A stretch of DNA of 64,000 nt from an uncultured bacterium (GTDB lineage Bacteria; Zixibacteria; MSB-5A5; CAIYYT01), in NCBI GenBank assembly GCA_963726455.1, contig CAVSCK010000001.1:62004-126003 (forward strand), given 5' to 3'. Both the position numbers and the translations under genes were made by a program. Below are positions 23,626-39,237 of this stretch, piece after piece; position 1 is the stretch's first letter; every line of letters begins with the position of its first letter. The notes under the pieces are model-generated. The model was not told the origin of the DNA. It worked only from the letters and a program-made list of their open reading frames with translations, and searched no databases.

Positions 23626-25864
<2,239 letters not shown>

Positions 25865-25884: not shown

Positions 25885-27666
25885 CTACTTCATTAGCAGC
25901 ATCTTGCGGGTTTCCGACATGCCGCCGGCGTCGATCTTGTAGAAGTAGACGCCACTGGACACCTGGTTGCCGCGATTGTCTCTGCCGTCCCAGGTAACCT
26001 GATGATTGCCTGCCGACATAACATTCTCGGAAAGAATCCGCACTACCTGGCCAAGCGAATTATAAACCGCGACTTTGACCTCGCCGGTCTGAGGAACGGC
26101 GAAGAAGATTGTGGTGGTCGGATTGAACGGATTCGGGAAGTTCTGGCTCATCATCGTCGGAGCGGTCGCAGGCGGAGGGATAAAGCCGTTGATCGTATTT
26201 CCGTTAATACAGCCCATAGCCTCGACGCAAGCGCCCGGGCACGGCGCTTGTAGAGTGCCGCTGACGCAAACCGAGTCACCGACTACGAAGCTACCGTAGT
26301 TTTCCAATACGAACTTGTGTCCGCCCATGCCGCCCATTCCCAATTGCGAGAACAACACGCAATTCGTGCCCTGAACCAGGAAGCCACAACCGTTGAACCC
26401 CGGTGTCGGAGGAGTGGTCGGACGGATGTCGTTCATCACGAGGCACGCGACGGCTTCGGGACACATGTTGGGGCAATCCGGCCTTACCATGCCCGTCACA
26501 CAAACCGAATCGCCCACGACAAACGGTCCGTAGTTCTGCAGTACAAATCTGGCATTGGGATCATTCGCGGCCACAAAGACCACGCATGCTGTGCCCTGCA
26601 CCAGCACGCCGCAACCCTGATAATGATTGCCCGGATTGTGTTGCCACGGATCGATTGTATTGTTCGCCAGGCAGGCGGTGGCCTCCGCACAGGGAAGCTG
26701 GCAGTCTGGGTCAAGCATTCCGTGCACGCAAACCGAATCGCCCACGACGAACGGTCCGTAATTCTGCAGCGCGATCAGACGACTTGAGTTGCCGGCTGGC
26801 GCAAACAGAACGCAGTCGGTTCCTTGTACCAGTGTGCCACAGGCCTCGAACGGTCCGCCGGGATTGGATGGCGGAGTAGATATGGTGTTGTCTCTGATAC
26901 ATCCATGGGCCTCCGGGCACTGTCCTTCGCAGTGAGGGAACATCAGGCCGTCAACGCAAACTGTGTCGCCGACGACGAAGGTGCCATAGTTGTCAAGAAC
27001 AAATCCGCCCTGTTGCATGCAGCCCATAGGCGAAAGAATCACGCAGCCGGTTCCCTGAACCAGTACGCCGCACATGCTCGTCGGAATTCCGGGGAATGGG
27101 TCGCCGACAACAGTCATGGTCTTGCAGGAGGTGGCGCTGAACTCGCCGCTCACGGCAGTCGCGCAGAACGTGTAAGTTCCCGGCATCGGCGGAACCGGAA
27201 TTCTGATCGGATGAGTAATCGTATCGCCCGGCGCCATCGGTACATGGATCACGCGGAACGTAATCGTGGTATCAAGAACGTCGTTGATATGGAGCGTAAC
27301 CTGAAACACCAACGTTACCAGCGACGCGGAGTCGCCGCAGTTGACCAGTTGAAATGCGCCCAGAACCGGCATATGATGCATGGGCGTCACATGGACCGTG
27401 TCCGGCAGCATCAATGACACGGCCACGCAGCTCGTGCTGTAACCGCCGCGACCGGAGCCGTTAAGATCGTTATAGATTTCTTCTACCGCGCCCGACACCG
27501 CGTCGATCACCTGATTGGCGGGAGCGCTGTAATCAAGCAGGTTGTTTGAATTTCGATGGTCGGCATCATTACGTGAGCCGTTTCCGGGAATGCCTCCGCC
27601 AAAGCTCGGCGCGTACAGAGCCAGCAGTAGCAGACTGGCCAGAAGAGCAACAGCAGTACGTTTCAT
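25885..27666 (-). CDS. Secreted protein with four six-cysteine repeats and a C-terminal FlgD-Ig/T9SS type A-like domain
   Basis: Signal peptide; four CG.LVQGT.C...NYG.FVVGD.VCV.G repeats; QNFPNPFNPTT...WDGRD...SSGVYFY...RKMLLMK tail. Confidence 0.85.
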   Translation of the reverse strand: MKRTAVALLASLLLLALYAPSFGGGIPGNGSRNDADHRNSNNLLDYSAPANQVIDAVSGAVEEIYNDLNGSGRGGYSTSCVAVSLMLPDTVHVTPMHHMPVLGAFQLVNCGDSASLVTLVFQVTLHINDVLDTTITFRVIHVPMAPGDTITHPIRIPVPPMPGTYTFCATAVSGEFSATSCKTMTVVGDPFPGIPTSMCGVLVQGTGCVILSPMGCMQQGGFVLDNYGTFVVGDTVCVDGLMFPHCEGQCPEAHGCIRDNTISTPPSNPGGPFEACGTLVQGTDCVLFAPAGNSSRLIALQNYGPFVVGDSVCVHGMLDPDCQLPCAEATACLANNTIDPWQHNPGNHYQGCGVLVQGTACVVFVAANDPNARFVLQNYGPFVVGDSVCVTGMVRPDCPNMCPEAVACLVMNDIRPTTPPTPGFNGCGFLVQGTNCVLFSQLGMGGMGGHKFVLENYGSFVVGDSVCVSGTLQAPCPGACVEAMGCINGNTINGFIPPPATAPTMMSQNFPNPFNPTTTIFFAVPQTGEVKVAVYNSLGQVVRILSENVMSAGNHQVTWDGRDNRGNQVSSGVYFYKIDAGGMSETRKMLLMK

Positions 27667-27816
27667 TAGACCTCCTATGTGGTTGTTGATTTCCTATTAA
27701 TCTTTCCAAGTTTCTATAACTGGAGTGCGCTCAGCGATCCGATTTGATACCGTTTTTTTTCGCTTTCTCACTACCGAAACCCGGTCGCCCGCTTTGCGGG
27801 AATCGCACATTGACGC

Positions 27817-29913
27817 CTACTGGCAACCAGGGGCGCGGCCGCCGGCGAAGATGTAATTTATCAGGAATACTACGTCGGATATGTCAATTACCCGATCGCA
27901 GTTGGCGTCACCGGCATCAAACAATGCAGGCGGCGGACCGGAAGCGAAAATATACGTGCACAAATACACCGCGTCCGAGATGTCAACGCTCCCCGAGCCA
28001 TCGGCATCTCCGACCAGAATCACGATTGGCGGGGATTCGTTCCAGACCGCGCCGGCGGCATTGACACAACCATAGCCATAGTATGGATCAACCGGCACGA
28101 TTGTCGTGCCGTGTAGAGTCTTGCTGGCCGTGGATCGAATCTGAATTTCCATGCTGAACGAATTCAAGTCCGGAAACGCGGCCTTGGCCAGAGCGCAGGT
28201 GCCGCTGACGACTGCTGCACCGAAGGATGTGCCGCTCCAGGTGCCCCATTGGTAAGTCCCCGCCAGCGAACTGTACAGATTTACTGCCGGCGCGCAGACA
28301 TCAATGTATTCGCCATAATTCGAAAACCAGGCAATTGCTTCGGTCGTATCGAGGGCCGAGACAGCAATCACTCCATTCAACGCCGCCGGGAATATTGGCA
28401 TAAACGTTGAATCATTCCCGGTGGCAGCGACCATAGTGACGCCGTTTGCCACTGCGGTGCTACAGGCCTTGACCAGCAGGTAGCTATTGTCATAAACGCC
28501 AAAGCTCATATTGATAATGTCTGCGCCGTGGTCGATGGCATAATAGATCGCCTGGGCGATTGCGAAAGTGTTACCGACTCCGTCTTGATCGAAGGCCCGC
28601 AGAGGCATCAGTTTGCTCTCCGGTGCTGTCAGGCGAATCAGCCCGGCAACGAAAGTGCCATGGCCGTAAACCGTTCCCGGTAATTCGCTGGGATCGTCGT
28701 CATTGTCGAAGAAATCGTAGCGGCTCGTGTCGAGCGCTCCCGCAAACAGGGGATGAGTCAATTCGATGCCGTTATCGATCACGGCTACACGCGTACCGTT
28801 TCCCTGCGTGCGGGCATGCGCTGAATCAATCCCGATTTCGTAGTTGGCGGGCTGCTCAAAGTACGAAGCCGGACTGACGCCGTAAACCAGCGGCGGGGCA
28901 TTTTCGTCCGGAAACGAAATACTCATTTGCTGCACTTCGGGCAATGACGTCTCGAAATTTGGCTCGGCAAACAATACGCCGTGATGAGTCCTGAGGATTT
29001 CCAATTGCGCGTCGACGGACAGCGTGTCGTCGAATCTGAGCAAATAGGTCATGCGGTGCGCGATACTATCGATAACGGATGAACCGATCGAGGATACAAT
29101 GGCAGCCAGAGAGTCGCCGGAATCCAGCCGCAGCACGGCATGTCCCGACATCGGCATCATCGGAGGCGGAGCACAGAAGAGTATCGAGTCGACCTCCAGA
29201 CATCCCGCAGCACCCTGACAAACTGTGCTGCAGGGCAGCACTCCGGGAGCAAAAACACGGACTGTGTCGCCGACCTGGAAGCCGAAGGCATTGCTGAGCA
29301 CGAAGCGCGTGAATGGATCACCGCCCGGAGAAAACATTATGCAGGTCGAATCTCCCACGATAACACCGCAGCCGCAGAAACCGGAACCATGCTGTCCCTG
29401 CATCGTGATCGAGTTTGATACTATGCAGCCGGTCGCTGCCGGACACGGGTTTAAACAATCGTTCAAACGGTTTCCGGTTACGCAAACCCGGTTTCCGACG
29501 TGGAAGCTTCCATAATTGTCGAGTCGCAAATGCGCCATTGGCTCGTTGTCGGGAACGAACAACATGCAGCCGGCCTGATCGATCAGACTGCCGCAGGCCT
29601 GATATTGGGAATCGGGAGGATTGGCCGGCGAAATGGAATTGTTTACGATGCAGCCCATGGCGTCAGCGCACTGGGGCTGGCAGTACATTTGCAATTGACC
29701 GGTAACGCAGACATGGTCTCCGGCGTGAAATGGTCCGTAATTGCCGAGCCCGTACAACGCCATCGGACCGCCACCTGGCTGAAATAGCAGGCAGTTCGGC
29801 CCCTGTACGAGCATACCACAGCCGCTGAATGGCGAGGCCGCCTGCAAGATCGGCGTGCAACAGAGTATTATCAGCAGCGCCGCAAGTCCCATCGATTTAC
29901 CCGGTCGTTTCAT
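27817..29913 (-). CDS. Secreted subtilisin-like S8 peptidase with three six-cysteine repeats and a dockerin-like tail
   Basis: VAVIDNG (Asp), HGTFVAG (His), SGTSF (Ser), ATGND; GDADGSGSVDISDAVYL and GDANCDRVIDISDVVFL. Confidence 0.92.
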   Translation of the reverse strand: MKRPGKSMGLAALLIILCCTPILQAASPFSGCGMLVQGPNCLLFQPGGGPMALYGLGNYGPFHAGDHVCVTGQLQMYCQPQCADAMGCIVNNSISPANPPDSQYQACGSLIDQAGCMLFVPDNEPMAHLRLDNYGSFHVGNRVCVTGNRLNDCLNPCPAATGCIVSNSITMQGQHGSGFCGCGVIVGDSTCIMFSPGGDPFTRFVLSNAFGFQVGDTVRVFAPGVLPCSTVCQGAAGCLEVDSILFCAPPPMMPMSGHAVLRLDSGDSLAAIVSSIGSSVIDSIAHRMTYLLRFDDTLSVDAQLEILRTHHGVLFAEPNFETSLPEVQQMSISFPDENAPPLVYGVSPASYFEQPANYEIGIDSAHARTQGNGTRVAVIDNGIELTHPLFAGALDTSRYDFFDNDDDPSELPGTVYGHGTFVAGLIRLTAPESKLMPLRAFDQDGVGNTFAIAQAIYYAIDHGADIINMSFGVYDNSYLLVKACSTAVANGVTMVAATGNDSTFMPIFPAALNGVIAVSALDTTEAIAWFSNYGEYIDVCAPAVNLYSSLAGTYQWGTWSGTSFGAAVVSGTCALAKAAFPDLNSFSMEIQIRSTASKTLHGTTIVPVDPYYGYGCVNAAGAVWNESPPIVILVGDADGSGSVDISDAVYLCTYIFASGPPPALFDAGDANCDRVIDISDVVFLINYIFAGGRAPGCQ

Positions 29914-29934
29914 GATCTATATCTCCGTCAGCAA

Positions 29935-32691
29935 TTATATTCCCAGCAATACATAAGGCGCCCAGAAAGCAGGATTGTCGTTAATCTTCATCACATGATT
30001 GATGGCGGCTGCGTAAGCGGCAGGCACATCATTGTTGGCGCTGAGCGATTGATAGAATTCCGTCATGAACATCATGCTCAATTTGTCTGATACCGTCCAG
30101 AGTGATGCCAATACAAACCGCGCTCCGGCTTGATAAAAAGCCTTCGCCAAACTGAAAGAATTTGCGTAATGAATTCCCGGCGCCGCGGTCTGGCACCCCG
30201 ATAGGGTGACCAGCTGTGCAGCGACACCGCTTCCAAACAGATCAAACGGAAAGAACGGCCCGTCGTTCAAAAGAATCCTGCTGAACAGCGGATTTTCCGA
30301 AGATCGCGACGCGTGAGTAGCGATATGTACAAACCCGGTGGAATGCCGCAATTCATCCAGCAGGCGATGCGATGAGACGGCATCGTCAGTGTACAGCATG
30401 GCTTCCGGAAATGCCGCGCTGATTCTGCTTCCTTCGATCTCGACCATTGGCAATCCGCTTGCGGAAGGCGCGAAAATTGCGGAGCGCAATGTTGTTATCG
30501 GTTCAGTTGCTTGTGACTTATAGGCCAGGTCATCCGGACTTACAATGATGCGCATCTCAGCGCTATCTTTCAAGTATGCCTGTCCGGAATCGGGGAGCGC
30601 GGCAAAAGGTATTTGCGCGAAAATGCCGTCAACCAGGAACACGGGCTTACGGTCTGCAATGTATTGCTCAATCGGAGCCAGCAACCAATCGCGGAGTTGA
30701 TTCAGATGCTGAATGATGGCCTCACGCGAGCCGCCGGTCGGCATGTAAACTGCATTTTCCATCAGGAAGTGCAGCTGCCGTACCGCTGCATTCAATTGAT
30801 TCGGAGTAACCCGGCATCGGACGAAATCTATACTGTCATTTGTGACCGAGAAGACGCCCACGGAATCTTCCAGTGCCACGGGATTAATCAGGATATGGGA
30901 GCCATCCACCAGATTGTTGGCGCCTGCAACTCTGCCTGAAGGCATTGTCTGAAGCGAGCTCGCTGCGGTGAGGATGGAGGCAATTCTCCGTTCGCTGGTG
31001 TAAAGCTGATGCTCAATCTTTCGCATCGCCGGCGCCGAAATCGTACGTGTCGCCGACTCACCGGGAGCTTGCTGCAGCCGCTTGAGCGATAAACGCAAAC
31101 GATCGCGCTCCCGCAAGAACTGCTGCGGGACTTCGCGGGCGATCTGCGAATCAGGAACCCGGCGCTGGTTGAGAATCGCCAAGGCGCGCGAATTCTGCGC
31201 GAATGATTCGTCGGTCTTGCCCAATTCCAGCAGACATTCAACGGCGGAGGAATAGCCAGATGATTTGCCCAGTGCGAAGAAGAAGCGTCTTTCGTCCGCC
31301 GGGAGATTCGGCAGCACCTTCTCGACAACAGCTATGGCTTTGCGGAAATGCCGCAACGCCAGTGCGGAACGCGATTGTTGCTGCAGGCATTTTCCCAGCA
31401 GAAATTCCAAGCGATACTGCTGATAGCTGGATAGCGGCCGGTTGAGCAGCGACTTGGCTTTTTGCTGCGCTGACTCGGCTGAGCCGTTTGCGAGTCCGGC
31501 TTCGATCAATGTTATCTCGGCGTCGAGTGTGCGCCGTTCATCTCCACTTATTTGGAACAGTCGCCGGGCCGCAGTGGCTGTTCTCGTTGCGGTCTTGATT
31601 TTGCCGGCGTCAAGCTCGAATCTGGCGCGCTCCAGCTCGACCATTCCGAGCCAGAGTTGATTTTTCTCAGACCCGAACAGCTTCTTCGCTTTGTTCAGAT
31701 ACCTGGCGGCTTCATCGTTGTCTCCAAAGTGACGCAACGCCTCGGCGATGAAGTACGCCGCTTTGCCTTCTTCATAAAAGAGATTGAGCTTCTTACAGGC
31801 GGCGTCGGCATCCTGGCCGTACATCACGGTAGAACTAAGTTGATTCAGATATGTGCTGATCTCAGCGAGATCGAGTGTTGTCACGGCGACCGCCTTGGCA
31901 TCGCCGAGTTTCTTGAATGACACCAGCGATTTGTCGAAGGTCGCCAGCGCCAGCGTGTACTGATCTTTGAGAAAATACAAATATGCCAGAGAGTATTCGG
32001 CCTTGGCCTGTGCGATCGCCATGCCTCCTTGACGATAGATTTCGGCCGCGTCGCGATATAGCTGCTCGGCTTCGTCGAGGCGATTGAAATTGACCAGGAT
32101 GTTGGCGCGGTTGAAATCGACAATCGCCAGCGATATGCCGCCCTGCTTGGCGAATATAGCGCGCGCGAGATCGTAGTAGCTTAGCGCTTCACGGTTGCGA
32201 TCGAGGCGATGATAAACGTTGCCGATATTGGTCATCACGCGCGCCGCCTGAGTGTCGAGGTGCTTCTTTCGGAAGTATTTCAGCGCAGCTTTGCCGCAGT
32301 CCAACGCCTGCGGATGCTTGCCCAAGTACATGAACGCATCCATCAGTCCCTGTTGTGTCTGCGCGGCCAATTGATATTGCTTCTGTTTTTCGAACTGCCG
32401 GATGGCGTTTTCATACTTACGTACTGCGTTCGCGCTCTTGCCGCTCCAGTGGGCCAGGCGCGCTTGCATGGCAAGCAATCGAGGCGCCTGAGACTTCGGA
32501 AGCAGTGCAAAACATTTCTCGGCACGTTCGACATACTTTGCGGCCTTCTTCAGGTCGCTCTGGAGCAGTTGATTGAGCGACGAACTGATATCGCTGGCGA
32601 ACTTGTCGGTATCACCCTGATACCGGTCGGTAATTAACCGATCAAGCGCCGCTTGCTTGGACAGCCGCGACATTTCAGCGAAGGTAATCAT
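29935..32691 (-). CDS. TPR-CHAT caspase-like cysteine protease
   Basis: Long N-terminal TPR array; IPFAAL, HIATHA (His), LSGCQT (Cys), ASLWTV, FWAPY; no signal peptide. Confidence 0.92.
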   Translation of the reverse strand: MITFAEMSRLSKQAALDRLITDRYQGDTDKFASDISSSLNQLLQSDLKKAAKYVERAEKCFALLPKSQAPRLLAMQARLAHWSGKSANAVRKYENAIRQFEKQKQYQLAAQTQQGLMDAFMYLGKHPQALDCGKAALKYFRKKHLDTQAARVMTNIGNVYHRLDRNREALSYYDLARAIFAKQGGISLAIVDFNRANILVNFNRLDEAEQLYRDAAEIYRQGGMAIAQAKAEYSLAYLYFLKDQYTLALATFDKSLVSFKKLGDAKAVAVTTLDLAEISTYLNQLSSTVMYGQDADAACKKLNLFYEEGKAAYFIAEALRHFGDNDEAARYLNKAKKLFGSEKNQLWLGMVELERARFELDAGKIKTATRTATAARRLFQISGDERRTLDAEITLIEAGLANGSAESAQQKAKSLLNRPLSSYQQYRLEFLLGKCLQQQSRSALALRHFRKAIAVVEKVLPNLPADERRFFFALGKSSGYSSAVECLLELGKTDESFAQNSRALAILNQRRVPDSQIAREVPQQFLRERDRLRLSLKRLQQAPGESATRTISAPAMRKIEHQLYTSERRIASILTAASSLQTMPSGRVAGANNLVDGSHILINPVALEDSVGVFSVTNDSIDFVRCRVTPNQLNAAVRQLHFLMENAVYMPTGGSREAIIQHLNQLRDWLLAPIEQYIADRKPVFLVDGIFAQIPFAALPDSGQAYLKDSAEMRIIVSPDDLAYKSQATEPITTLRSAIFAPSASGLPMVEIEGSRISAAFPEAMLYTDDAVSSHRLLDELRHSTGFVHIATHASRSSENPLFSRILLNDGPFFPFDLFGSGVAAQLVTLSGCQTAAPGIHYANSFSLAKAFYQAGARFVLASLWTVSDKLSMMFMTEFYQSLSANNDVPAAYAAAINHVMKINDNPAFWAPYVLLGI

Positions 32692-33272
32692 ATTTCCAAA
32701 TCAACCACTGCTAAGGATTCGCCCTGGATTATTTTCAAATGGTACTTGCCGCCGGGAAGTCGTTCGATGTGAAATACTCCGAATTGATCCGCCTGCGCTG
32801 TGATTTTGCGTTGACCGCCACTCAATTCGATCTTGATTTCCTTTGTGCCTACCGTGACAGAAAGTTGGCCTATTAGTTCGTAGGACTTGGGTGACACCGG
32901 ATAGAGTGACAATTCCAGCCGCTGGTCGCCGACCTGATAGCGCACACGGCGGGTGTCGACCAGTGCCGGACGAACACCATCCGGAAGCGGCAGCATTTGG
33001 CTGTCATAGGTCACAATGCCTCGCTCTTGGCGCGGGTTCTTGCCGGCTTCGCGGGTGTCCTTGAGCATGCCCTTGAGCAGGGAGTGTGCCGACTGGCGTA
33101 ACTTCTCCCACTCCGACAACGCTGCCGAATCGGTGTCACCAACGAGCGATTTCAATTCCGCCAGATCCTGATCGCTGTCCAGCTTCTCCGCTAACTCCTC
33201 GCGCTCTTTATCCGACAGGCGCTTCAGCAGGTCATCCGCCAGCTTCTCTATGTTTTTCTCTTTCTTTCCCAT
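32688..33272 (-). CDS. Putative anti-sigma factor or CHAT substrate (helical N-terminus, beta-sandwich C-terminus)
   Basis: Lies between the sigma and CHAT genes, ATGA overlap with CHAT; TYDS...GVR...RRVRY linker; LIGQ, D.FGVF, LPGGKYHL resemble a carboxypeptidase-regulatory-like domain; function inferred. Confidence 0.65.
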   Translation of the reverse strand: MGKKEKNIEKLADDLLKRLSDKEREELAEKLDSDQDLAELKSLVGDTDSAALSEWEKLRQSAHSLLKGMLKDTREAGKNPRQERGIVTYDSQMLPLPDGVRPALVDTRRVRYQVGDQRLELSLYPVSPKSYELIGQLSVTVGTKEIKIELSGGQRKITAQADQFGVFHIERLPGGKYHLKIIQGESLAVVDLEI

Positions 33273-33316
33273 TAATCCACCTGTATTCAGGTCTCGCTTT
33301 TCGTGTCAAAAAATAC

Positions 33317-33889
33317 CTAAAAATTGAACTTCTTTCGCTTTAGTATGCGGCACAATTTGTCCAGCGCCTTGCCTCGTAAGGGACCGATTGATGACACCGG
33401 CATCTTCAGTGCCCGCGCAATCTCCTTATATGACGGTTCCTCCGGATCGAGAAACAGCGCCGTCAGCAGCCGGAAATCTCTGTCGTTCAATTCGCTCATT
33501 GCCGCCAGCAGCGCTTGACGCCGCCGGGCTTGCTCATAGACTTTTTCAGGGTGGTCGGCGCAATCGTCCGCGACCAGTTCCAGCGATTCATCGCCCACGA
33601 TTTCGACCATTCGCAATTTCTGGTAGAAACTATAAATCTGGCGGCGGGTAATTGTGGCTACGACCGCCGGAAGTTTCTCGGCTTCGCGAATGGAGTCGAT
33701 GCTCTTGACCAGCTCAAGACAGACTTGCCCGTAGATGTCGAAACTTTCGTCCCGGGTCAATCGGCTGCGTCGGCAGAGGGCAAAGATCACCGGGCCGACC
33801 AAGTCGATCAGTTCGTGCCAAGCCGGTTCATCACTCTGGCGGCAGAGTCGGACTAGTTCTTCGAGAGTGTGCTGGGCACGTCTGATCAT
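33317..33889 (-). CDS. ECF-type RNA polymerase sigma factor
   Basis: 190 aa; region 2 (AWHELI, DIYGQV) and region 4 (SYKEIA.AL.MPVSSIGP.R.KAL.KL). Confidence 0.9.
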   Translation of the reverse strand: MIRRAQHTLEELVRLCRQSDEPAWHELIDLVGPVIFALCRRSRLTRDESFDIYGQVCLELVKSIDSIREAEKLPAVVATITRRQIYSFYQKLRMVEIVGDESLELVADDCADHPEKVYEQARRRQALLAAMSELNDRDFRLLTALFLDPEEPSYKEIARALKMPVSSIGPLRGKALDKLCRILKRKKFNF

Positions 33890-34163: not shown

Positions 34164-36336
34164 ATGATGACGTATTTTCGCCGCTGCTGTGCTATTCTGG
34201 CTTTGGTTACACTTCTTGCCGGCACCACTCTTGCTGACGAAGGCATGTGGCCACTCTATCTTCTCGACAAACTTCCGTTCGATAGTCTCCAGACCCGCGG
34301 ACTGATTCTCAAACCGCAGGATATATACAATTCGCAAGGCACCGGCATCGCCAGTGCGGTGGTGCAGGTCAGCGCGACCGGATCGTTCGTGTCGCCGGAA
34401 GGATTGATCCTCACGAATCATCATGTTGCTTACGATGCCATCGAAGAACAAAGTTCGGTTGAACACAACTATCTTCGCGATGGTTTCTACGCCCCCACTA
34501 AAGCGGGTGAAAAGCAAGCTGTCGGGTATCGTGTCTCTGTGACTCTCGGTATGGAAGATGTCACGTCGCGAGTGCTGGCGGTGGTGAACGACACGATGAC
34601 CGATTTGCAGCGCTACAAGGCGGTCGATCAGGAGATCAAGAAGATCGTCAAAGAAACGGAAGCGGGCGGCGATATCAAGTGCCGCGTCGCGACGATGTTC
34701 TCCGGCAAGCAGTACGTCAAATATACTTTCATGGAAATCCGCGATGTGCGCATCGTGTATGTGCCGCCGATGGCAATCGGCAATTTCGGCGGCGATATCG
34801 ACAACTGGATGTGGCCGCGCCACACCGGCGATTTTTCATTCCTGCGCGCCTATGTTGCCCCCGACGGCAAGCCCGCCGACTATGCAAAGGAAAACGTGCC
34901 GTACAAACCGAAGTCGTATTTGCCGGTTTCATCTGCCGGAGTCCGTGAACACGACTTTGCAATGACACTCGGTTTTCCCGGCAGCACGCGGCGCTACATC
35001 AGTTCGTTCGAGCTGGAAAATGCGATCAACTTCACCTATCCTCGTTCGATTCATATTTCGGAGGATCAGCTTAAGATCAGAAATGAACTTGGCGCGATGG
35101 ATTCCGCACTGGCGCTGGCGCAGTCGTCTGATATCGCAAGTATCAATAACCGGTTGAAAAAGAACTACGGGACGATGGAAGGCCTGACGCACTCGCACAT
35201 TCTCCAGAAGAAACAGACCGATGAACGCGGGCTGGCGGAGTTCCTGAAAGCTAATCCGGCGTTGGACAAGAAAGTATGGACGGTACTTCCGGAGCTCGAC
35301 AGTCTTTACCGCGCCAACAAGGTTGATCAGGAACGCGATGCGACACTTTCGCAAATGATGTGGGGTTGCACCTATCTGCGGCTGGCGAATACACTCTATC
35401 GCTGGTCGGTCGAACGTCAGAAACCGGATATGCAGCGCGAACGCGGATTCATGGATCGCGACACGGCCGCGGCAATCGAGCGGTTGACGAATGTGCAATC
35501 CGATCTCGCTCCCAAGGTCGACAAGGAATTGCTGAAATATTCGCTGCACAATGCCCTGGCACTGCCCGCTAATCAAAAGATCGACTTGGTCGAAAAGATG
35601 TTTCCGGTGGGGACGAATGGCGACCGTGAAAAGCAAATCGATCAGTTCGTTGAGAACGCGTATGCCAGAACCATCATTGGAACGACTGACCAGCGTCTCA
35701 AGATGTTCGCGTTGAACAAAGCCGATTTGGAAAATCTGCACGATCCGTTCGTCGACTTCGCCGCCGCGCTCTATCCGATGATGGAAACATCCCGTGAACG
35801 CGACCGCGTGTTCTCCGGCGCCGAAACCCGCCTGACCCCGAAATTGATTCAGGCCTACGCCGAGTGGAAGCAGGAGAAGATGTATCCCGACGCCAACGGC
35901 ACGATGCGCCTGAGTTACGGCGAAGTGCACGGCTACCAGCCGCGCGATGCCGTCAGCTACGATTATGAAACGACCTTGTCGGGCGTGATCGAAAAGGAAT
36001 CGCGAGTCGATCCGTTTATCGTGCCCAAGGAACTGTCGGCGACATTTGCCAGCAAAGGATTTCGGCAACTACGTCGATGCGCAGTCCAAAGATGTGCCGG
36101 TCGATTTCCTGACCACCAATGACATTACCGGCGGCAATTCCGGCAGTCCGGTCATCAACGGCAAAGGCGAACTAATCGGCCTGGCGTTCGACGGCAACTA
36201 CGAAGCGGTCGCCTGCGACTACCTGTTCGATGGCGACATCGACCGTACAATCTCAGTCGACATCCGTTACGTCCTGTTCATCATCGACAAGGTGTACCAC
36301 CTCAACGGCTTGTTGAAAGAGATGACGGTGCGATAA
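34164..36336 (+). CDS. S46 dipeptidyl peptidase (DPP7-like), frameshifted near 36055
   Basis: Signal peptide plus [28 protein letters not shown]; catalytic [10 protein letters not shown] and AFDGN lie in the +1 frame ORF 36046..36336. Confidence 0.92.
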
Positions 36337-38886: not shown

Positions 38887-39153
38887 CTACAAGGCGTCTT
38901 GATCGCCGGGGGTGGTGCCGTCGGAATTGGAAGCGGTTGAGTCAGTATACGATGTGTCGGGTTGTGTTGTGATGGGATCGGATGATGGCTCAGGCCGAGC
39001 GTTGGATTTGGCGCGGCCTGAGTCACGAAGGGCTTTGCGCAAGAGGAATTCGATTTGGCCGTTCAGTGAGCGCAATTCATCATCAGCCCAGCGCTGCAAG
39101 GCGTGCAGCGTATCCTGATCGATCCTAAGCAGGAATGATTTGCGCTCAGCCAT
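38887..39153 (-). CDS. Arc-like ribbon-helix-helix DNA-binding protein
   Basis: RKSFLLRID....WADDELRSLNGQIEFLL; usual partner of this SPFH subfamily. Confidence 0.88.
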   Translation of the reverse strand: MAERKSFLLRIDQDTLHALQRWADDELRSLNGQIEFLLRKALRDSGRAKSNARPEPSSDPITTQPDTSYTDSTASNSDGTTPGDQDAL

Positions 39154-39159
39154 AATCCA

Positions 39160-39237
39160 TCACCGATCCGCCCAATGCTGCAAACGGTGCAGCGGTTTCC
39201 GATCGATCCTCAACGTGTATGACTTACGCTCAGCCAT
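39160..39237 (-). pseudogene. 25-codon truncated duplicate of the RHH gene 5' end
   Basis: MAERKSYTLRIDRKPLHRLQHWADR* versus MAERKSFLLRIDQDTLHALQRWADD. Confidence 0.75.

Follow-up and report, generated by a model that had tools for sequence, protein, structure and literature searches.

We analyzed a stretch of 64,000 nucleotides (nt), hereafter the window, from an uncultured bacterium of the Zixibacteria lineage (GTDB Zixibacteria; MSB-5A5; CAIYYT01; assembly GCA_963726455.1, contig CAVSCK010000001.1, positions 62,004 to 126,003). At 33889..25885 on its minus strand, five co-oriented genes encode a sigma factor of the extracytoplasmic function (ECF) type, a protein of 194 amino acids (aa), a TPR-CHAT protease, a secreted S8 subtilase and a Cys-repeat protein with a sorting tail of the type IX secretion system (T9SS). 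The first four recur together in related genomes, and the 194-aa protein is predicted to bind the sigma factor. Our favored reading is that of a free-standing cassette of the ECF54 type, made of sigma factor, soluble anti-sigma factor, TPR-CHAT and secreted subtilase and working as a CHAT-gated sigma switch, for which we see about an even chance. A preliminary description, made from the letters of the window, had already listed the five genes, and all five open reading frames (ORFs) were found on the minus strand as given there. The ECF sigma factor (by TIGR02937), the ATGA overlap between the second and third genes (by the sequence), and the S8 subtilase and FlgD-tailed protein (by Pfam and NCBIfam matches and signal-peptide-like starts) were likewise identified as it had named them.

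The four-gene arrangement is conserved across many loci

In 12 loci from relatives the order sigma, ORF of about 190-210 aa, CHAT of about 915-937 aa and S8 was kept throughout, the sigma position of one of them (L019) lying beyond the contig end. We then scanned one genome per species with the CHAT alignment as query and obtained 61 loci, some of which overlap the first 12. As labelled, these comprise 32 from Zixibacteria, 25 of Ignavibacteria type and one each from Calditrichaeota, Neomarinimicrobiota, GN15 and a 'bacterium'. The taxonomic labels disagree with one another, as contigs named 'uncultured Ignavibacteria/Ignavibacteriales' fall by genome placement in the class of the window's Zixibacteria-like genome. 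A sigma gene and a homologue of the 194-aa gene lie directly upstream of CHAT in 42 of the 43 loci with enough flanking sequence, and in 48 of 53 testable loci the gene directly downstream is S8. Among the five downstream misses, no S8 was found in L041 and L064, the CHAT gene is split in L074 and L081 with S8 after the second piece, and L083 is rearranged. The last is also the single upstream miss; all four of its genes are present and its CHAT gene is divergent. Recurrence of the arrangement in dozens of loci puts it far outside what chance would give. Some loci depart from the plain layout: L026 (249-11211) holds two back-to-back divergent cassettes, in L048 (1606-8064) S8 is followed at once by a second sigma gene, the promoter motif lying between the two, and in L083 (3787-9763) CHAT is divergent from the sigma, 194-aa and S8 genes.

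A profile search found the 194-aa family itself in 123 of the 251 genomes sampled from the phylum (101/198 of those of high quality, 66/120 genera), in 1-5 copies per genome; within the window's genus, only 1 of 3 further genomes has it. In a library of 1.84 billion representatives the family counts 594 members with an E of 1e-10 or better. A homologue search with the family alignment gave 12 matches, all unnamed or called 'hypothetical protein', and tblastn of the protein against plasmids gave no match. Look-alike clusters in Chloroflexota and Acidobacteriota are leads only: zf-HC2 occurs in 10% of the members of an Atlas cluster from Acidobacteriota, and NOMO1-like_2nd in 13% of those of one Atlas look-alike cluster.

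The 194-aa protein is a candidate soluble anti-sigma factor

The 194-aa protein matched no Pfam, NCBIfam or PADLOC family at threshold. Its AlphaFold2 (AF2) model, built from an alignment of 87 sequences, has a predicted local distance difference test score (pLDDT) of 91.7 and consists of three N-terminal helices (residues 3-15, 21-33 and 35-78), a coil (94-107) and a nine-strand C-terminal beta-sandwich. A conserved loop at about 88-109 separates a three-helix domain (3-78) from a sandwich of transthyretin/CarboxypepD_reg-like fold. The sandwich resembles the transthyretin-like domain of NOMO (family profile against the Protein Data Bank, PDB, E 5.8e-4; Pfam NOMO_3rd sub-threshold at 0.0072), and its likeness to CarboxypepD_reg is one of fold, the Pfam family of that name staying below threshold. 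Foldseek of the model against the PDB returned nothing at E 1e-3 or better and listed generic beta-sandwiches. Generic beta-sandwiches also fill most of the top 50 of a VIA-align search of 48,161 chains, in which three rows match the N-terminal helices alone. Two of the three are anti-sigma factors, RsiW (5wuq_C; Z 6.3, rmsd, or root-mean-square deviation, of 4.9, 70 residues aligned) and the cytoplasmic part of MucA (8z6g_A; Z 6.1, rmsd 2.8, 53 aligned), and the third is a Retron-Eco1 effector chain (Z 5.8, rmsd 2.2, 47 aligned). The family profile also gave a weak match to the anti-sigma factor RslA (3hug_B, E 0.63). HxxxCxxC lies within the first 80 residues in 33 of the 147 best family representatives of 150-230 aa; of these 147, 135 carry the linker motif DS..P..G.R and none has a transmembrane-like (TM-like) segment.

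We predicted the complex of the sigma factor with the 194-aa protein and obtained an ipSAE of 0.81 (median of three runs), against 0.01 for the best of three controls; the mark applied to complexes is attained by 58 of 80 solved complexes and by 2 of 110 mismatched pairs. The runs agree in at least 67% of contacts, with a partner pLDDT of at least 72. In the model, residues 19-61 of the sigma factor (region 2) face residues 46-74 of the 194-aa protein, i.e. its long third helix, together with residues 86-94, 111 and 113. Binding of region 2 is thus what the model predicts, and we consider it quite probable that the 194-aa protein represents an as yet unnamed family of soluble anti-sigma factors. 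The preliminary description had cast it in this role and had suggested both a survey of gene neighbourhoods and a prediction of the complex. The linkage counts given above, the predicted hold on region 2, the anti-sigma-like N-terminal helices and the HxxxCxxC subclade all speak for its proposal.

A predicted ECF-type promoter motif marks the cassette and a neighbouring gene

The sigma factor matches TIGR02937 (sigma70-ECF) at 56.2 bits (cut-off 42.9) over residues 23-179 of 190, and its Pfam matches to regions 2 and 4 are sub-threshold. By TIGR02937 it is an ECF sigma factor with regions 2 and 4 only, as in ECF54. A bipartite motif, GTATyww-N15/16-CTCy, occurs in the spacer between the sigma and 194-aa genes (P1) and again ahead of the fifth gene (P2). 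In its longer form, GTAT[T/C][T/A][T/A]-N15/16-(CTCT / ACCT / CACTC), it starts a few bases from the sigma stop, and it keeps a fixed place in that spacer in 32 of the loci having both genes. P1 begins one base past the stop codon of the sigma gene, and about 15 nt part it from the start of the 194-aa gene downstream. With a position weight matrix (PWM) trained on the other loci, it was the top match in the window's 3.64-Mb genome (score 19.3).

The strict two-block form of the motif is unevenly spread over the loci, and per kb it occurs 3.77 times in the sigma-to-194-aa spacer, 1.04 times after S8 (17/48 loci), 0.44 times upstream of sigma (5/42 loci) and 0.04-0.06 times within the CHAT and S8 coding sequences. 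Copies resembling P2, with identical spacing, are present in L050, L055, L058 and L061. After S8 the motif is found in 13 of 17 loci whose next gene encodes a T9SS-tailed protein, versus 3 of 20 with other next genes (Fisher p 2.4e-4, taken over loci that are akin to one another). Upstream of the sigma genes we found a TTGACA-type sequence in 11 of 44 loci, compared with 1 of 44 background stretches of the same length from CHAT coding sequence. Because of this placement of the motif, and of the TTGACA-type sequences ahead of the sigma genes, the data suggest that the sigma gene is expressed independently and that its predicted targets are the anti-sigma-CHAT-S8 unit and the gene for the neighbouring secreted protein. 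As a separate observation, the predicted -10 block of P1 sits in a 5-bp palindrome, ACCTG-AATA-CAGGT on the minus strand (33279-33292), which could form a weak hairpin.

The subtilase is a core member and the fifth gene varies

The subtilase of the window matches Peptidase_S8 (5.2e-41), with a fervidolysin-like prodomain and a C-terminal dockerin-like module in Pfam, and carries the catalytic motifs VIDNG (378), HGTFVAG (418) and GTSFGAA (561) behind a signal-peptide-like N-terminus. The fifth protein matches FlgD_ig (1e-11) and, over residues 510-590, TIGR04183, the sorting domain of T9SS type A (40.5 bits, cut-off 23); with its Por_Secre_tail and hydrophobic signal-peptide N-terminus it has the make-up of a T9SS type A cargo. 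The sorting domain has 51 matches in the same genome, so that the fifth gene is one of about fifty cargo genes, yet one that carries the motif of the cassette. Its homologues are found in a subgroup of loci, e.g. L032, L050, L055, L058 and L061. Among 31 next genes scanned, 10 encode a second S8 protease with PKD repeats and a T9SS tail, 6 encode T9SS-tailed proteins without any other Pfam domain, a group that includes the Cys-repeat type of the window, and the remainder are housekeeping genes or gave no match.

The preliminary description had treated the subtilase and the fifth protein as two secreted cargo proteins induced by the freed sigma factor. The pairing does not hold: S8 belongs to the core of the cassette and shares a predicted sigma-dependent transcription unit with the anti-sigma and CHAT genes, and the fifth gene alone varies. 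As to induction, the ECF-type motif ahead of the fifth gene fits the proposal, and we infer the use of this promoter from the motif. The two secreted proteins also share a Cys-rich repeat of about 75 aa with six Cys (CG.LV.G..C..F ... NYG.F.VGD.VCV.G ... C...C......C), present in three copies in S8 (residues 32-255) and four in the fifth protein (residues 199-500). The repeat approaches DUF5818 below threshold (3e-5, 23.9 bits against a cut-off of 27) and is likewise shared by S8 and its neighbour in L032, L050, L055, L058, L061, L077 and L084.

The cassette resembles the ECF54 neighbourhood

The gene neighbourhood of the ECF54 group is reportedly owed to Huang et al. 2015. It contains the same four components as the cassette and a nearly identical predicted promoter (GTATCAG / CTCC against GTATyww-N15/16-CTCy), and its mechanism is likewise hypothetical. 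The published sources compared here and below are represented by excerpts, and what we say of them extends to those excerpts. In ECF54 the +1 gene always encodes a carboxypeptidase-regulatory-like protein, a subtilase occupies +2 or -1, and a CHAT protein with TPR stands at +3 or -2 (PMC8999054; Casas-Pastor 2021 supplement). The supplement excerpts give no putative anti-sigma factor for the group, a predicted promoter of GTATCAG (-35) and CTCC (-10), and a distribution that is 100% Actinobacteria (Casas-Pastor 2021 supplement). In the window the +1 protein is carboxypeptidase-regulatory-like at fold level, CHAT stands at +2 and S8 at +3, all within the next three genes, and the sites P1 (GTATTTT-N15-AGACCTG) and P2 (GTATCAA-N15-GCACTCC) agree with the promoter predicted for ECF54.

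Three differences stand against these similarities. The usual order in ECF54 is sigma, +1, subtilase, CHAT, whereas here it is sigma, +1, CHAT, S8. The group is described from Actinobacteria only, whereas our cassette occurs in Zixibacteria-like genomes and is likened to ECF54 by neighbourhood and promoter. Finally, the literature excerpts assign no anti-sigma factor, a role that the prediction made here gives to the +1 protein. In the main text and supplement excerpts ECF54 is among the few ECF groups without an assigned regulator (Casas-Pastor 2021). The ECF54-type neighbourhood is already catalogued in Actinobacteria, as the preliminary description had anticipated in placing sigma-CHAT-subtilase neighbourhoods in other phyla, and because it has been described under that name the novelty is smaller than that description implied. 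What is new here is the predicted binding of sigma region 2 by the 194-aa protein, the positions of the bipartite motif and the association of the motif with T9SS-tailed neighbours. The literature covered holds no account of the cassette in Zixibacteria, of the +1 protein as an anti-sigma factor or of the promoter position; relevant statements, and other CHAT-linked ECF groups, may exist in supplement parts beyond the excerpts.

CHAT as the candidate protease of a sigma switch

The third protein matches CHAT (1e-40) and TPR_12 (1.5e-21) in Pfam, with about 13 TPR-like hairpins in residues 1-510 and the CHAT domain at about 597-918. In its AF2 model (918 aa, pLDDT 86.3) a TPR superhelix of some 500 residues is followed by a caspase-fold CHAT domain, and the best solved matches in Foldseek are Csx29 (2.2e-15, 13% identity), human separase (1.1e-14) and DdvA (1.6e-13), with identities of 11-14%. 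On this model the protein is of the Csx29/separase/DdvA structural class. The catalytic motifs HIATHA and LSGCQT lie at residues 789 and 830, and all 50 of the aligned homologues keep H789, H793 and C833. An N-terminal export signal was found in 0 of 56 CHAT homologues and 0 of 46 homologues of the 194-aa protein, versus 46 of 47 S8 homologues, and neither the 194-aa nor the CHAT ORF of the window contains a TM-like stretch. The lack of an N-terminal hydrophobic stretch and the intact His and Cys motifs agree with the cytoplasmic protease that the preliminary description had seen. The stop codon of the 194-aa gene overlaps the CHAT start as ATGA in the window and in 42 of 46 loci.

In the candidate anti-sigma factor, D90, S91 and R101 are invariant in 87 sequences, and P95, G99, R101 and R108, which are invariant or nearly so, lie in the coil and outside the confident sigma interface. 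Because these conserved coil residues fall outside that interface, the loop at 95-109 (PxPxGVR...RR) would be the most plausible site at which CHAT recognizes or cuts the protein.

We therefore keep to the following reading of the cassette as a switch, in conditional terms. The sigma gene would be transcribed from its own promoter, not of ECF type, and its product would be kept inactive by the 194-aa protein, whose long third helix and the start of the beta-domain would clamp region 2. A cytoplasmic cue, sensed by the TPR array of about 500 residues, would switch on the His/Cys dyad of CHAT, which would then cut the 194-aa protein, most likely at the invariant exposed loop around 95-109. With the remnant lost, the sigma factor would join RNA polymerase and read GTATyww-N15/16-CTCy promoters. 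One of these, ahead of the anti-sigma-CHAT-S8 unit, would reset the switch and raise S8; the other, ahead of the neighbouring gene for a T9SS-tailed secreted protein, would be a second target. The output would be extracellular, namely the subtilase together with the Cys-repeat protein or a second S8-PKD protease.

A number of points weigh against this reading. For the anti-sigma factor, Z scores of about 6 for helical domains are, by the tool's own warning, in a range that common arrangements can reach. No Pfam anti-sigma domain was matched, zf-HC2 being sub-threshold in 1 of 12 members (E 0.03) and in 2 of 20 (E 0.025 and 0.042), and the protein of the window has no Cys and hence no HxxxCxxC. 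The high score of the predicted complex may partly reflect likeness to solved sigma/anti-sigma complexes, and the confident interface involves region 2 alone, region 4 being absent from it. For the protease, contact between CHAT and the 194-aa protein, as well as the cut itself, is what we infer by analogy; the conserved loop (pLDDT 82-87) may instead be a structural or sigma-binding element, and residues 86-94 do contact the sigma factor in the model. For the promoters, the motif is poorly specified in its -10 half, just 17 of 43 loci pass the strict two-block pattern in the spacer, and kinship among the loci makes the counts and the Fisher test overstate independence. Genome-wide, the PWM gave 253 matches at a score of at least 11 against 306 in the reversed/complemented control, and because there is no excess over the control a wider regulon beyond the locus is not callable. 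Lastly, the model leaves the obligatory partnership with a secreted subtilase unexplained.

A different account of the same genes dispenses with the anti-sigma factor: neighbouring proteases, CHAT and/or others, would degrade the sigma factor directly, and the 194-aa protein would be an adaptor or a target. Degradation of this kind has been proposed for ECF54 on the grounds of its conserved carboxypeptidase(-regulatory), subtilase and CHAT neighbours (PMC8999054, section 3.3), in line with the lack of a putative anti-sigma factor for the group in the excerpts of its supplement (Casas-Pastor 2021). The invariant CHAT dyad implies that some substrate is cut, and a predicted sigma binder could equally be an adaptor that delivers the sigma factor to a protease. 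We nevertheless judge direct proteolysis unlikely. The RsiW/MucA-like helices, the HxxxCxxC of 33/147 relatives and the predicted region 2 clamp all favor an anti-sigma factor; S8, signal-peptide-like at its start in 46/47 homologues, cannot degrade a cytoplasmic sigma factor after export; and a predicted sigma-dependent promoter ahead of the 194-aa gene fits the usual feedback between sigma and anti-sigma factors.

The anti-sigma factor might also be released by a cue that bypasses CHAT, such as redox change in the HxxxCxxC clade or general proteolysis. CHAT and S8 would then simply be members of the regulon, with CHAT processing, for example, precursors of secreted proteins. Both genes do lie downstream of the predicted P1, where regulon members would be, and relatives of the zinc-binding anti-sigma type suggest possible redox sensing in part of the family. 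Against this stand the ATGA coupling in 42/46 loci and the near-universal co-occurrence, which argue for a physical or functional pair, as well as the position of the invariant coil outside the sigma interface, the lack of any Cys for redox sensing in the 194-aa protein of the window, and the precedents, in the excerpts covered, for CHAT or Lon proteases that cut anti-sigma-like partners. We hold an uncoupled CHAT to be improbable.

As to the CHAT gene in other contexts, tblastn against plasmids gave generic partial matches, mostly cyanobacterial, none of which covered at least 80% of the query. The gene is split into two ORFs in L048 (2813-5575), L074 (2161-4844) and L081 (7001-9753); a frameshift, a pseudogene or a faulty assembly could account for this. 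An apparent natural fusion of the 194-aa and CHAT genes (L070; a 1058-aa frame in G063) was rejected, as its open frame crosses a run of N.

Relation to known protease-sigma systems

In type III-E systems of clustered regularly interspaced short palindromic repeats (CRISPR), Csx29 cleaves Csx30, which binds CASP-sigma (PMC10028731). As in this system, Craspase, the window holds a cytoplasmic TPR-CHAT beside an ECF-like sigma factor and its predicted inhibitor, cleavage of the inhibitor is proposed to free the sigma factor, and sigma motifs lie within the locus; Csx29 is moreover the best structural match of the window's CHAT. Similarity stops at the class of fold, however, the protein scoring 25.9 bits against NCBIfam Csx29 NF041237 (cut-off 300). 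We found no CRISPR-like array in the window and no cas1 match in the 100%-complete assembly (Cas7-11 was not searched for), in agreement with the 'CRISPR-free' label of the preliminary description. The trigger cannot be a target RNA, Csx31 was not noted here, and the output would be secreted proteases. A search of the 194-aa family profile against PDB chains, which include Csx30, listed no Csx30 chain at E up to 10; this result and the different domain make-up rule out the 194-aa protein as a Csx30 homologue.

DdvA/DdvS of Myxococcus xanthus involves a transmembrane TPR-CHAT anti-sigma factor for which autoproteolysis is hypothesised (PMC11506125). It shares with the cassette the coupling of TPR-CHAT to an anti-sigma domain and an ECF sigma factor, with CHAT proteolysis as the proposed release step. 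According to the covered text, DdvA is a single TM protein whose TPR-CHAT is periplasmic and whose zinc anti-sigma domain is cytoplasmic, and it acts with RseP, whereas here the candidate anti-sigma factor and the TPR-CHAT are two separate soluble ORFs without a TM segment; DdvS controls an island of CRISPR and of the cyclic-oligonucleotide-based antiphage signalling system (CBASS), which is not present at the window locus. In CalpL-CalpT-CalpS, an ECF-type sigma factor is bound by a soluble anti-sigma-like protein, which a cytoplasmic protease cleaves (10.1101/2023.06.23.546230); this is also the logic proposed for the cassette. CalpL, in contrast, is a SAVED-Lon protease activated by cyclic oligoadenylate from type III CRISPR, and the published excerpts show no CHAT, TPR or subtilase. 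The class I anti-sigma factors RsiW, MucA and RslA resemble the 194-aa protein in the position of the gene next to the sigma gene, in a weak N-terminal structural similarity and in the HxxxCxxC of one subclade. They differ in that the 194-aa protein has no TM helix, is fused to a cytoplasmic transthyretin-like beta-sandwich, matches zf-HC2 below threshold and shows confident predicted contacts with sigma region 2 alone. The window locus is not a member of the Craspase, CalpL or DdvA systems.

The shared logic raises a wider and quite improbable reading, in which the cassette is a free-living signalling arm of Craspase (a widespread, CRISPR-independent ECF activation by a cytoplasmic TPR-CHAT that cuts a soluble anti-sigma factor), type III-E or DdvA may have captured such a cassette, and the cue may be a re-imported peptide made by the cassette's own subtilase. 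A peptide released outside the cell by the subtilase would be re-imported and sensed by the TPR array, closing a self-amplifying, protease-sensing loop. Such a loop is analogous to peptide sensing of the RRNPP type. If true, it would explain the obligatory secreted S8 in two distant phyla.

A role in defence, as a CRISPR-independent module whose CHAT senses infection and whose sigma factor launches a defensive or abortive programme against phage, would fit the patchy, multi-copy distribution (123/251 genomes with 1-5 copies, 1/3 genomes of the genus, duplicate cassettes in L026 and L048), the architecture analogous to Craspase, CalpL/T/S and DdvA/DdvS, and weak PADLOC domain matches (subtilase 2.5e-20, BovA 2e-4, SAVED_CHAT 4e-3), but it is very unlikely given that no PADLOC system-level match was obtained, that the sigma factor, the 194-aa protein and the fifth protein had none, that the predicted outputs are exported proteases and T9SS cargo rather than nucleases or toxins, and that the flanks are housekeeping genes (obg, dprA, ptsI, an S46 peptidase gene) in an assembly without cas1.

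With the CHAT-gated switch as the favored reading, the cassette offers a concrete and testable regulator for ECF54, in the form of the +1 protein as a soluble anti-sigma factor gated by the neighbouring CHAT, and it extends such cassettes beyond Actinobacteria to about half of the sampled Zixibacteria genomes. If true, the logic of type III-E CRISPR, where a caspase-like protease frees a sigma factor, also stands alone and drives secreted proteases, and the cassette would be a simpler system in which to study how TPR-CHAT proteases get switched on. The analysis predicts the promoter, a minimal regulon and the loop likely to be cleaved, all of which are testable in E. coli without culturing the organism.

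Locus boundaries and genome context

The features of the locus are listed in Table 1.

Table 1. Features of the sigma-CHAT-subtilase locus, in window coordinates.
Feature	Position	Strand	Basis
ECF-type sigma factor, 190 aa	33317..33889	-	TIGR02937
Predicted ECF-dependent promoter P1, GTATTTT-N15-AGACCTG	33288..33316	-	Motif reading
Soluble anti-sigma candidate, 194 aa	32688..33272	-	AF2 fold, predicted complex with sigma
Cytoplasmic TPR-CHAT caspase-like protease, 918 aa	29935..32691	-	Pfam CHAT, TPR_12
Secreted S8 subtilase, 698 aa	27817..29913	-	Pfam and NCBIfam matches
Predicted ECF-dependent promoter P2, GTATCAA-N15-GCACTCC, upstream of the fifth gene	27722..27750	-	Motif reading
Secreted T9SS-tailed protein (fifth gene), 593 aa	25885..27666	-	FlgD_ig, TIGR04183
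Intrinsic-terminator-like hairpin and T-run closing the cluster	25801..25829	-	6 stem pairs, 4 G-C

The terminator lies about 56 nt past the last stop codon; its hairpin (25829..25811) has a 7-nt loop and is followed by the tail TTTTTTGTGCG. The preliminary description had called it strong. The hairpin and T-run are real and the strength is moderate, not exceptional. On one side the locus is flanked by a divergent S46 peptidase gene (34164-36122, plus strand) and downstream by obg, dprA and ptsI. The longest ORF for obg (24713-25858, minus strand, 381 aa) begins upstream of the terminator hairpin; because its GTP1_OBG domain does not begin before residue 51, translation probably starts at a codon further downstream.

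By profile search the window's genome holds a single copy of the 194-aa family. It also contains five further CHAT-domain ORFs of 1018-1106 aa (C2:30326-31372, C3:517878-518921, C4:441531-442565, C4:444663-445703 and C4:1884158-1884967), two of them about 2 kb apart on C4, and because of the single 194-aa copy these do not belong to sigma cassettes of the same type. The sole tandem repeat in the window, at 39082-39237, has a unit of 84 bp in 1.9 copies with 78% identity.

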